The translations under genes and the position numbers were made by a program. From positions 1 to 14,909 of the IMG/VR virus record IMGVR_UViG_2869976549_000004: 14,909 nucleotides of DNA. One strand, given 5' to 3'. Positions 10,472 through 12,247 of this stretch are shown one piece after another; within the stretch, counting starts at the first letter, position 1, and each line of letters starts with the position of its first letter. The stretch comes from a virus (Duplodnaviria > Heunggongvirae > Uroviricota > Caudoviricetes). The notes under the pieces were generated by a model that made no database searches, was not told the DNA's origin, and worked only from the letters and a program-made list of their open reading frames with translations.

Positions 10472-11026
10472 TCAAAAAGCAATAACTTTTTTCTCTATAC
10501 CAAAAGCCATAACCATTGGTTTGTACAAAATAAATTCTGCCACCTTTAGCCAATGCTCAATGCGTCTTTCACAGGTTCTTAAACTCCATTTCGGGTGTGC
10601 ATCATTCAGCAGTTCAGCCATTTTGCGTTTGGTCATCCCCCGCCCCTCATACCGTTGCCGAAGGACGCTAATCAATCCTGGATGCTCTGCCAGCACCTCA
10701 CTTATGACCCGATCAATACATAACGCCTCTGCATCAGTACAATGCGCCAGCCAGCTCTTTTGCTTACCGTTAATCATATCCCGCAAAAAAGCCTCAAGTT
10801 CAGACTTGTTCAGACCTGCTTTTTTCATCCTCCGGAGCGCCTCGTTAATTGCCGTTTTTGTCAGCTTTTTAGAGGTCAACATCAGGTTAAACATATTCCC
10901 CGTCTTACCGCCACCAATATACGACCAGCGCCCCCACATACGTAGTTTTCCCTGAATCCAGACACTTTCCAGCGTGGTGAGACGAAGGTGTTCTCCGCTT
11001 TTTCCTGTATTCGTTGGGTAAATCAT
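10472..11026 (-). CDS. Q: Putative late-gene antiterminator Q (assigned by position; family not verified)
   Basis: 184 aa from the ATG at 11026, preceded by SD AGGAGGG and overlapping the ybcO-like stop (ATGA). Sits between nin-type genes and the terminator/tRNA/lysis block. The ORF-track version (224 aa) would overlap the upstream gene by about 120 nt. Confidence 0.45.
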   Translation of the reverse strand: MIYPTNTGKSGEHLRLTTLESVWIQGKLRMWGRWSYIGGGKTGNMFNLMLTSKKLTKTAINEALRRMKKAGLNKSELEAFLRDMINGKQKSWLAHCTDAEALCIDRVISEVLAEHPGLISVLRQRYEGRGMTKRKMAELLNDAHPKWSLRTCERRIEHWLKVAEFILYKPMVMAFGIEKKVIAF

Positions 11027-11313
11027 AAATATCCCTCCTTTCTCCAGATTTCTTGTGTGCGAAAAACACCTTCTGCATGCATCAGGCGTAATTCTTCTTT
11101 GGTGTAATCGCTGGTTTTTACCCGCCCGTCGATTAAATCGTGGCACGAGCTACAGGCAATCGCTGCCTGCATATCGTGTGGCTTTATCGCTGTTCCGCAC
11201 GTTCCCGCCAGTCGGTAATGCGCCAGCACAGACGTTTCCGGATCGTGATTGCAGTAGCCAGGAATTCTGACGGTGCACATCTGCCCCCGCGCCGCTTTAC
11301 GTAAATCCACCAT
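11023..11313 (-). CDS. ybcO: YbcO-like protein (DUF1364, putative metal-dependent nuclease)
   Basis: 96 aa; MVDLRKAARGQMCTVRIPGYCNHDPETSVLAH...IACSSCHDLIDGR resembles the DLP12 prophage YbcO as I recall it; Cys/His-rich. Confidence 0.55.
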   Translation of the reverse strand: MVDLRKAARGQMCTVRIPGYCNHDPETSVLAHYRLAGTCGTAIKPHDMQAAIACSSCHDLIDGRVKTSDYTKEELRLMHAEGVFRTQEIWRKEGYL

Positions 11314-11912
11314 TACGCAAACTCCAGCAGCTGCGCGGCCACATTTTCGACTTGTTCCGGAGAGGAAAATTTACGGAACAGAATCCAGTTCCACAGCACA
11401 TTCAGAACAGATTTATAAACCTGCTGAAACTCGGTTTCGTCCATATTCGCAAAAGCGATGGATTTTGCCCGACGCCCGCGGCTACCGTCCGGATAAAAAT
11501 GTTCGGTGTAAAATCCAGCCTGAATGGTTACCCACTCGCGAAAAGCCTCAAACGACTTTAGCAATGCCGTATCCCGGGTTCTGCGTGTCGCAACTGTATT
11601 CAGATATTGCTCTGCGGCTTCGCTCAGAGCTGGCGTATGTTCCCGACCTACTGATTCGCACAGGTAATCAACGAAACCAGACAGCAGTTCTCGTTCGCGA
11701 GGCGTGATCGCCCCACCGACCGGAGTCCAGTAATCGAATCCCAGTTGCAGGAGTTTGAAAAAACGCTTGTGGAATGCGTAGTTACGCACACGCTTAAAGT
11801 CTGCGTGTATCCACTCACCTGTTTTGATTTGATGCAGAAAATCGCAACTCTCCGGCGTCGCCGGGAGAAGTAATCCGGAAGAGGTTTGTTTGATCAGTTG
11901 TATATGCGCCAT
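11313..11912 (-). CDS. nin-region phage protein of unknown function (possibly DUF1367 family)
   Basis: 199-aa ORF with RBS GGAGAA upstream; stop overlaps the ybcO-like start (TAATG). Family assignment is from memory and unverified. Confidence 0.5.
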   Translation of the reverse strand: MAHIQLIKQTSSGLLLPATPESCDFLHQIKTGEWIHADFKRVRNYAFHKRFFKLLQLGFDYWTPVGGAITPRERELLSGFVDYLCESVGREHTPALSEAAEQYLNTVATRRTRDTALLKSFEAFREWVTIQAGFYTEHFYPDGSRGRRAKSIAFANMDETEFQQVYKSVLNVLWNWILFRKFSSPEQVENVAAQLLEFA

Positions 11913-11983
11913 CGTAGTTCTCCGCTGGCGCAGTAGAATGGGTGTTCAGCCCGTTATGTAGTATACCAGAATTAATGCCAATA

Positions 11984-12247
11984 CTAACAGGATGCTCTGA
12001 CTCGCAATTCATCCAGCAGTTTATCATTTCCCATAATGTCACTTACCCTCATCGGTAAAAAAATTGCCTTTCGACCATTACGATACATCATTGATTTTTT
12101 GGTTTCAGGGAAGTAATCCATTTCGACTATAACTGACAGGTCATCACGACGTATGACTGCGTATTTACTACTAAATAGTTTCTTTATTTTTTCCACGATG
12201 CCTCCAGGTTTATAAGTACAAACGGTTATATCAACATAGAGACAAAA
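11984..12247 (-). pseudogene. C-terminal fragment of an unknown gene truncated by IS1 copy 2
   Basis: The ORF track starts at a GTG (12196), but the frame stays open upstream to the IS1 boundary at 12248, so the native gene was probably longer. Confidence 0.4.

Follow-up and report, generated by a model that had tools for sequence, protein, structure and literature searches.

A predicted small antirepressor, a DUF1367 protein and a conserved leader hairpin in the nin/Q block of a Rac-type prophage remnant

The virus record IMGVR_UViG_2869976549_000004 (Caudoviricetes; 14,909 nucleotides, analysed at its full length and called the window here) contains, at 10,472 to 12,247, a run of minus-strand genes that a preliminary description, made from the sequence alone, had assigned to the nin region of a lambdoid prophage, with the block ending in the late antiterminator gene Q. 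This assignment was correct. The region is likely to be the right-hand early block of a Rac-type lambdoid prophage, with four intact minus-strand genes for an antirepressor, IrsA, YbcO and Q, and this is the best explanation of the whole. The first of these genes, encoding 70 amino acids (aa), is complete, and on sequence comparison its product is a full member of the GfoA/Rem superfamily of small antirepressors. The 70-aa protein would act as a prophage antirepressor; after its gene come two probable recombination genes and Q, which would activate the late genes. As an early-to-late nin/Q block of a degraded Rac-type prophage the region is ordinary; the useful outputs are the assignment of the 70-aa protein to GfoA/Rem, moderate structural and positional support for an Orf-like DUF1367, and an undescribed leader hairpin. 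The host is probably a Shigella or a close E. coli relative.

The open reading frame (ORF) at 11984-12247 had been described as a truncated gene because the frame stays open to the end of the insertion sequence (IS) IS1. The frame is indeed open from the GTG at 12196 to the IS1 end at 12247, a stretch of 17 codons without any start codon. Truncation was not borne out, however, and the gene is complete at 11984-12196. A Shine-Dalgarno (SD) sequence, GGAGG (12205-12201), lies at the proper distance ahead of the GTG at 12196. The identical 70-aa product is annotated by RefSeq (WP_000411315.1) in intact prophages (APEC O1), and in APEC O1 approximately 170 bp of non-coding DNA and a terminator are found further upstream. 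In other genera the homologues have their starts no more than a few residues from the GTG position, their N-terminal residues are unrelated and the upstream extension shows no conservation, and the exact 70-aa sequence is present on at least 1000 contigs, where it is always unnamed or misnamed, being labelled 'hypothetical' or, spuriously, 'bacteriocin' or 'cohesive ends'. Because of the SD, the RefSeq annotation, the starts of the homologues and these identical copies, the IS1 break is placed 51 bp upstream of the predicted start of an intact gene and not inside it. The AlphaFold2 (AF2) model of the 70 residues is confident and compact (predicted local distance difference test, pLDDT, 87), with four β-strands and a C-terminal helix; no relative was found among solved structures. 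The window locus is carried by 175 of 5426 complete E. coli genomes, with the similarity ending at 12247. A dead 3' remnant of a longer gene cut by IS1 would be consistent with the open frame and with an 83-aa version, starting 13 codons further upstream, that is annotated in some E. coli genomes (P0126). In this window, though, the start codon of that version reads GTT, and with the evidence above the remnant explanation is already contradicted; its probability is close to negligible.

The 70-aa protein belongs to no Pfam or NCBIfam family, the NCBIfam matches being due to chance, and matches PHROG 1813, of unknown function, with an E-value of 1.6e-32. A profile search over 1.84 billion representatives recovered only 27 clusters, all of small proteins, with the common motif Y-A-V-I-R-C-x-D ... 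F-P ... R-A-L-M-Y-R-x-G ... F-x-P-L ... D-E-I-x-G-T-P ... R-A-G-Y. The antirepressor lead came from phage Rac (MN652886), where 'rem, prophage antirepressor' is annotated in the slot of the 70-aa gene, directly upstream of 'irsA', the DUF1367 gene. In the Gifsy prophages a LexA-controlled operon runs from dinI through a small antirepressor gene with a non-ATG start (for GftA, GfoA or GfhA) to irsA (Lemire, Figueroa-Bossi & Bossi 2011, PMC3121763). GfoA, of Gifsy-1, and GftA are experimentally demonstrated antirepressors, GftA being only distantly related to GfoA (PMC3121763). The sequence of GfoA was sought through the primers of Lemire 2011 Table S1, which give the N-terminus as M-SNSALQK (le117) and the C-terminus as RRLGYRVTPPSDI (le163); in the same table STM1020.1n of Gifsy-2 is GftA. 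The ORF between dinI and irsA in phage SEN34 (SEN34_55, TTG start) agrees at every residue with the N-terminal peptide, and of the 13 residues encoded by le163, 12 recur in it, 7 residues before the C-terminus, identifying SEN34_55, at the level of sequence, as a GfoA-type protein. The exact gfoA primer was not found in viral contigs.

The profile of the 70-aa family (A4) aligned with this GfoA-type protein over its full length in hhalign (97.6% probability, E 3.4e-12, 68 columns), and BLASTP of the window protein itself against SEN34_55 gave an E-value of 4e-5. A clear member of the 70-aa family is also found in a Gifsy-like setting, as SPN3UB_0059 of Salmonella phage SPN3UB, which matches the family hidden Markov model with an E-value of 3e-30, is located between dinI and irsA behind a canonical LexA box. 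The relationship to Rem is more distant. Rem of the Qin prophage, originally detected by transitive PSI-BLAST from GfoA, derepresses the DicA-controlled dicB promoter (dicBp) 165-fold; it is not under LexA control (PMC10448788). BLASTP detected no similarity between the 70-aa protein and Rac Rem. Since jackhmmer searches started with either the 70-aa protein or Rem reached convergence with the groups still apart, the link was made through an intermediate group, which matches the 70-aa family with an E-value of 3.1e-7 and the Rem family with one of 1.3e-7 in profile-profile comparison.

The neighbourhood of irsA was compared over 77 genomic loci encoding DUF1367 and several phage records. Among the Enterobacterales loci outside Xenorhabdus and Photorhabdus that have an upstream ORF, 24 of 32 carry a small ORF of the superfamily upstream of irsA, mostly at 31-100 nt; these ORFs fall into several sequence groups with one common C-terminal motif. 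A small ORF directly ahead of irsA is likewise present in Gifsy-2, SPN3UB, SEN34, mEp237, phage Rac and many genomes. In Xenorhabdus and Photorhabdus the slot holds helix-turn-helix (HTH) or HTH-peptidase M78 genes. At one such position (L036, 897-2099) a 401-aa protein that combines an HTH with an IrrE/ImmA-type metallopeptidase (Peptidase_M78) is encoded directly upstream of the irsA leader, and equivalent ORFs occur in the Photorhabdus/Xenorhabdus loci L042, L045, L047, L049-L052 and L057; this fusion is another kind of induction-control protein in the same slot. Larger proteins occupy it in Erwinia phyllosphaerae (L022, 3271-3954), with an N-terminal LuxR-type autoinducer-binding domain (Pfam 5e-12), and in Citrobacter braakii (L053, 3329-3934), with a Rha domain (4.7e-27). 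In both, part of the C-terminal region gives a weak match to the small-antirepressor profiles (E ~1e-4 to 7e-4), which hints at sensor-antirepressor fusions.

By analogy with GfoA and Rem, the 70-aa protein would bind a short, HTH-only repressor of the DicA/GfoR type, free its operators and so induce the prophage. A repressor of this kind is present in the intact relative, the Rac prophage at ttcA in APEC O1, where it is 139 aa long and has an HTH_3 domain only, with no peptidase S24. Over its C-terminal 50 residues it shares 51% identity with the SPN3UB repressor and 46% with that of Gifsy-2. Short repressors of this class have been described as antirepressor-controlled (Lemire et al., PMC3121763; Ragunathan et al.).

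Several observations weigh against this picture. The pairwise identity of the 70-aa protein to GfoA is approximately 33% and confined to the N-terminal half, the hhalign comparison of its family with GftA was non-significant (E 0.23), and the direct profile match to Rem is weak (E 2e-3, 14% probability). A tblastn search of the window found no repressor gene, the immunity region having been deleted. Neither in the window nor in the APEC O1 intergenic region was a CTGT-N8-ACAG site with at most one mismatch found near the 70-aa gene, and there is no dinI upstream of the gene in either. A TTG-N10-CAG site in APEC O1, spotted by eye as a LexA box, was rejected on the same one-mismatch test. The missing LexA control is shared with Rem, and such control defines the Gifsy subgroup only. 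It was also considered whether the protein might share its ancestry with GfoA and have another role, for instance as a small regulator of some other kind, or in pairing with or counteracting the Doc-family toxin encoded next to it. The low pairwise similarity to GfoA and the absence of a Gifsy-like dinI/LexA context would fit such a role, as would the position of the gene in APEC O1, just downstream of a doc-type toxin gene. A terminator and approximately 220 bp separate the two genes there, however, and the doc cassette is missing in other carriers whereas the linkage to irsA is constant. Moreover, the C-terminal domain of the intact relative's repressor is common to the Gifsy-2 and SPN3UB repressors, and Rem is a functional antirepressor although it too is without LexA control. 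A different role therefore seems improbable, and assignment as an antirepressor is preferred.

In the window the 70-aa gene is an orphan antirepressor gene, since its cognate repressor has been lost with the whole immunity, replication and recET region, and its native promoter region has been replaced by IS1. If expressed at all, the orphan could act only in trans, on another resident prophage. A consensus scan picked out a promoter-like site at 12261-12233 (minus strand) pointing into the gene, in which TTGGCA (12261-12256), from the end of IS1, and TATGTT (12238-12233), from the native DNA, are 17 nt apart. This consensus match could represent a hybrid promoter created by IS1. The ends of IS1 are reportedly known to form promoters of this sort, as Prentki et al. 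are said to have described in 1986.

Between the 70-aa gene and irsA, in a spacer of 71 nt, lies a leader that is conserved in approximately 50 Enterobacterales loci from Escherichia, Salmonella, Klebsiella, Citrobacter, Serratia, Pantoea, Erwinia, Yersinia, Pectobacterium, Xenorhabdus and Photorhabdus. It contains a −10 hexamer of the TATAAT type (column counts, out of 33, of T 30, A 33, T 23, A 27, A 24 and T 32). Approximately 7 nt downstream of this is a 5-bp hairpin with a covarying stem and a near-invariant loop, (C)CUGAACA(A), i.e. CCUGAACAA, and a conserved UGYGYCAY box follows ahead of the SD. For this structure 81.8% of cells are paired, and double changes are seen at 4 of the 5 stem pairs (5 of 6 tested). 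The covariation score is 0.539, compared with 0.209 ± 0.028 for shuffles, none of 500 of which reach it, and with at most 0.118 for slid controls. There are 13 G·U pairs to 2 A·C mismatches, an excess which points to an RNA on the coding strand, and RNAalifold independently predicts the same stem. A second, SD-sequestering hairpin predicted in the leader of the window was discarded, as it is unsupported by the consensus fold across loci.

A covariance model of the element matches the window at 11928-11959 and finds a single copy per phage in the whole genomes of Gifsy-2 (L090, 11714-11745) and SPN3UB (L091, 41618-41649); with one convincing copy in each, a nut-like two-copy arrangement was rejected. 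A sub-threshold match was found in the DLP12 prophage of E. coli K-12 (L004, 6318-6349), where a perfect 10-bp stem with the same loop stands just upstream of ylcH-ybcN. The element therefore heads nin operons that start with DUF1367 or with a true NinB; in λ the equivalent place is taken by the terminator tR2. The leader hairpin corresponds to no Rfam family, the lone match in the spacer (K10_TLS, E 1.7) being due to chance. In the Klebsiella phage ST846-OXA48phi9.2 (L085, 1226-1257) a second copy of the hairpin is present 1.2 kb upstream of the main one and is followed by ATGGCGCACAAAG, which resembles the start of a duplicated or remnant irsA gene.

Our best guess is that the hairpin is a 5'-terminal stabilising or protein-binding structure, with the transcript starting at its foot. 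The genes irsA, ybcO and Q would form one unit through their overlapping codons, headed by the conserved −10 element and the 5' RNA hairpin. A wider reading, which we put forward tentatively, takes in both the leader and the small antirepressors. The leader would act in cis, as an RNA element not described before, in Rac-, Gifsy- and DLP12-type prophages, with a σ70-type −10, a start at the hairpin foot and the UGYGYCAY box, controlling the stability, read-through or translation of the irsA-nuclease-Q transcript and thereby late timing; the small-antirepressor domain would be a mobile unit open to fusion with sensors, such as the acyl-homoserine lactone (AHL) autoinducer-binding domain in the Erwinia prophage. 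If true, this fusion would tie prophage induction to quorum sensing.

The 199-aa product of irsA was given as a protein of unknown function in the preliminary description. It is a full-length match to Pfam DUF1367 (PF07105; 2.9e-96, 321 bits where 25 is the cut-off, covering residues 1-198 of 198), is 91% identical to the annotated IrsA of phage Rac and matches PHROG 319, 'NinB/Orf homologous recombination mediator' (7e-70), and structure searches return NinB-named proteins. A profile link to NinB, on the other hand, was not found. λ NinB and DLP12 YbcN are in PHROG 72 rather than 319; of the two Pfam models only PF07105, and not the NinB model PF05772, matches the 199-aa protein; and hhalign of narrow and broad DUF1367 alignments against λ NinB, YbcN and a 26-sequence NinB alignment gave probabilities below 1%. 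A 17-column hhalign match between DUF1367 and NinB (ISFAxMDexEF with QSTSkMxvxEF) was set aside as non-significant. Sequence searches of the PDB with DUF1367, single and profile, returned only noise, for example neuroserpin and biphenyl dioxygenase, and NCBIfam has no model for the 199-aa, 70-aa or Q proteins beyond chance matches.

Distant DUF1367 members are only approximately 140-160 aa long and lack residues ~66-110, the core thus being NinB-sized at ~150 residues; in the enterobacterial members a helical insert of approximately 45 residues occupies this position (about residues 66-110). The AF2 model of the 199-aa protein is moderate, with a pLDDT of 70 (73-88 in the C-terminal half). Foldseek with this model against viral models (BFVD) placed NinB-named proteins at ranks 3, 6 and 8, with E-values of 5e-3 to 0.2. 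The strongest argument for a NinB-like DUF1367 is synteny. In Gifsy-2, SPN3UB, SEN34, mEp237, two Klebsiella phages and ZF40, as in many genomes, the gene order runs from DUF1367 through YbcO, NinG or RusA to Q, and in λ and DLP12 the exact place of DUF1367 is taken by NinB or by YbcN of the NinB family. Judged by fold, by PHROG label and by the place of its gene, DUF1367 is best read as NinB-like in both fold and role, a reading that is, on balance, probably right. The protein may then be a recombination mediator that helps to load RecA or RecT on single-stranded DNA coated with single-stranded-DNA-binding protein. The Orf relatives recognised by Curtis et al. 2014 (PMC4118853) do not include DUF1367.

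The gene irsA was found first through Tn10 insertions that impair the growth of Salmonella in host cells, a phenotype cited as unpublished (PMC3121763). As an alternative, DUF1367/IrsA could belong with the antirepressor module as a regulator or as a protein that interacts with the host; it might, for example, modulate the SOS response or induction, or help growth inside cells, and the likeness to NinB would be a chance match of a small α/β fold. The Tn10 phenotype, the tight linkage of irsA to the antirepressor slot and the lack of a NinB link in sequence profiles speak for this, and Lemire et al., noting that dinI, the antirepressor gene and irsA stay linked, suggested a role in regulation (PMC3121763). 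The same authors, though, found that non-polar irsA deletions leave the induction of Gifsy reporters unchanged, so that there is no induction phenotype (PMC3121763). Distant DUF1367 genes in phages of Pseudomonas, Vibrio and Bacteroidota adjoin YbcO, NinG or RusA nucleases with no antirepressor present, two independent structure searches brought up NinB, and a true NinB stands at the same position in DLP12 and λ. A regulatory or host-directed IrsA accordingly appears rather unlikely, and the NinB-like reading is retained.

The remaining features of the block are collected in the table below. As the preliminary description had noted, the 199-aa, YbcO-like and Q genes are connected by real stop/start overlaps when read on the minus strand: TAATG at 11311-11315 combines the irsA stop with the ybcO start in a 1-nt overlap, and ATGA at 11023-11026 combines the ybcO stop with the Q start in a 4-nt overlap. 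Both are annotated identically in the intact Rac prophage of APEC O1 and in phage Rac MN652886, and the 4-nt overlap is found again in Pectobacterium phage ZF40 (gp23/gp24). Because they recur in intact relatives, the overlaps are a conserved trait of the gene block and not due to chance. Each downstream gene also has an SD of its own, GGAG ahead of ybcO and AAGGAGG ahead of Q, and translational coupling of irsA, ybcO and Q is therefore plausible though not obligatory. The 70-aa gene stands outside this chain, separated from the 199-aa gene by the 71-nt gap.

Table. Features of the nin/Q block in the window, in order of position (SD, Shine-Dalgarno sequence)
Feature	Position	Strand	Basis or remark
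Q-type late antiterminator (DUF1133), 184 aa	10472-11026	minus	ATG at 11026 overlapping ybcO stop
YbcO/DUF1364, 96 aa, predicted zinc-binding His-Me finger (HNH-type) nuclease	11023-11313	minus	Pfam, PDB, PHROG
IrsA/DUF1367, 199 aa	11313-11912	minus	Pfam PF07105
Spacer with conserved leader, 71 nt	11913-11983	minus	
irsA SD GGAG	11923-11920	minus	
Conserved box CUGCGCCA	11933-11926	minus	
Hairpin loop CUGAACA	11949-11943	minus	
Hairpin stem GGG/CCC	11952-11950 with 11942-11940	minus	covariation, RNAalifold
Extended −10 TGgTATACT	11968-11960	minus	comparison of ~50 loci
70-aa gene	11984-12196	minus	GTG start 12196-12194; SD GGAGG 12205-12201; stop TAG 11986-11984
IS1 copy	12248-13015	plus	separates 70-aa gene from native upstream DNA

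The 96-aa protein matches Pfam PF07102 (DUF1364; 7.7e-45, 151 bits) and PHROG 131, 'HNH endonuclease', and is homologous to the K-12 YbcO structure (PDB 3G27, E 1.4e-30) with the Cys and His positions aligned. By sequence it is YbcO, for which a His-Me finger nuclease fold with a treble-clef zinc site has been predicted (PMC4999995), and it would serve as a zinc-stabilised nuclease in place of the Rap/NinG or RusA of other phages. The 184-aa protein matches Pfam PF06576 (DUF1133) with an E-value of 3.8e-107, Phage_antitermQ with 1.7e-6 (28.4 bits against a cut-off of 26) and PHROG 753, 'anti-termination protein Q-like', with 9.4e-80. These family matches identify it as a Q-type antiterminator, which would turn on the late genes. 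Downstream of Q there are four tRNA genes and then, beyond an IS600 copy, the lysis genes. The tRNA cluster, at 9972-10282 on the minus strand between Q and the IS600-interrupted lysis genes, comprises Met(CAT), Arg(TCT), Thr(TGT) and Gly(TCC); of these, Thr and Gly alone are present at the corresponding place in APEC O1 Rac. Just downstream of Q, at 10372-10445 (minus strand), there is a sub-threshold match to isrK, a small RNA of Gifsy-1 (RF01394; 19.9 bits against a gathering threshold of 50, E 0.23). The isrK-like stretch ends in a terminator-like hairpin, at the position expected for a Q-dependent late leader.

The IS1 break upstream of the block had been recognised correctly. The limits of this copy were fixed by self-BLAST with a second IS1 copy at 2318-3085. 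It is not flanked by a 9-bp target duplication, GAGACAAAA being found on one side and AACTCATCT on the other, and therefore marks a deletion or rearrangement. Beyond it lie a 139-bp fragment of a DUF977 early gene from the same prophage type (13016-13154), an IS600 (13155-14418) and the 3' part of the Rac integrase gene (14418-14909). The window contains two IS1 copies and three IS600-type copies or fragments, with remodelled stretches at 12248-14909, 1438-3434 and 8526-9789, and the immunity, replication and recET regions are missing from it. IS1 and IS600 have deleted the immunity region and cut the prophage to pieces. A synteny comparison, proposed earlier as a way to find what normally lies upstream, gave an answer: in APEC O1, the closest intact relative, queH, hok, a 59-aa ORF and a doc-family toxin gene are located between the DUF977 gene and the 70-aa gene. 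In E. coli ECMA0423 and Shigella flexneri SFBU1023 (L006/L007, 3150-3967) the 70-aa gene is approximately 0.85 kb from irsA, and an IS1-type end, GTAAGTTGGCAGCATTACC, abuts its last codons, marking a second, independent IS1 insertion at the locus.

The suggestion that the 70-aa and 199-aa genes might be of the kind that prove to be anti-defence or host-takeover functions received no positive support. PADLOC, whose models cover defence but not anti-defence proteins, matched none of the 70-aa, 199-aa and Q proteins; for YbcO it gave marginal matches to HNH nucleases only. That one or both proteins are anti-defence or host-takeover factors would accord with their being small, poorly annotated genes of a prophage early region and with the variable 'moron' zone (hok, doc, queH) that lies just upstream in relatives. 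The 70-aa protein has a specific assignment based on homology, however, and both genes are in fixed backbone positions across genera and not in variable cargo slots. An anti-defence function is accordingly considered very improbable.

None of these findings overturns current understanding. Placing a 'hypothetical' 70-aa protein that is common in E. coli and Shigella among the antirepressors would provide a testable handle on the induction of Rac-type prophages, whose short repressors are unable to cleave themselves. As Gifsy antirepressors act in trans, an orphan copy, possibly driven by an IS1 promoter, could influence other resident prophages. If DUF1367 is an Orf-like mediator, a second large family joins the phage recombination toolkit, and the leader hairpin presents a defined target for control of the nin/Q operon in phages without a known N system.

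The individual components can be compared with known systems. DUF1367 resembles λ Orf (NinB, PDB 1PC6) and DLP12 YbcN in that its gene opens the nin block, ahead of those for a junction-type nuclease and Q, and in its ~150-residue core, with the same order of secondary-structure elements in our reading. It differs in belonging to PF07105 (IrsA) and PHROG 319 rather than PF05772 and PHROG 72, in giving no significant profile-profile match and, in enterobacteria, in having the extra helical insert at ~66-110. The 96-aa protein is a clear homologue of the His-Me finger protein YbcO of DLP12 (3G27), with conserved Cys and His residues and the position of NinG or RusA in sister phages, whereas λ Rap (NinG) has 204 aa rather than 96; for any YbcO the nuclease role is a predicted one. 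The leader is like the nut boxB RNA of λ, the put RNAs of HK022 and 5'-terminal stabiliser hairpins in being a short hairpin of phage RNA whose loop is invariant and whose stem covaries, placed where an operon starts through which transcription must pass to reach Q. Unlike boxB and put, it occurs in one copy rather than two, has a 7-9-nt loop rather than a GNRA-like pentaloop as in boxB, lies in the nin region and not beside cro or N, has no identified N-like partner and is not in Rfam.

The 70-aa protein has no pairwise similarity to Rem and is in PHROG 1813 rather than 340. The two nevertheless have in common a slot downstream of hok and upstream of the nin/Q genes, the absence of LexA control and the C-terminal motif R-x-D-E-hydrophobic ... 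R/K-A-G-Y/F. From the Gifsy antirepressors the 70-aa gene differs in being without dinI, a LexA box or a repressor at its locus, and its product has no significant direct match to GftA. It is like GfoA, GfhA and GftA in its size (70 compared with ~73-82 aa), its non-ATG start and its position immediately ahead of irsA. It is linked to GfoA in particular by the full-length profile match, and its parent prophage type encodes a short repressor of the HTH kind that lacks a self-cleavage domain and is related in its C-terminal region.

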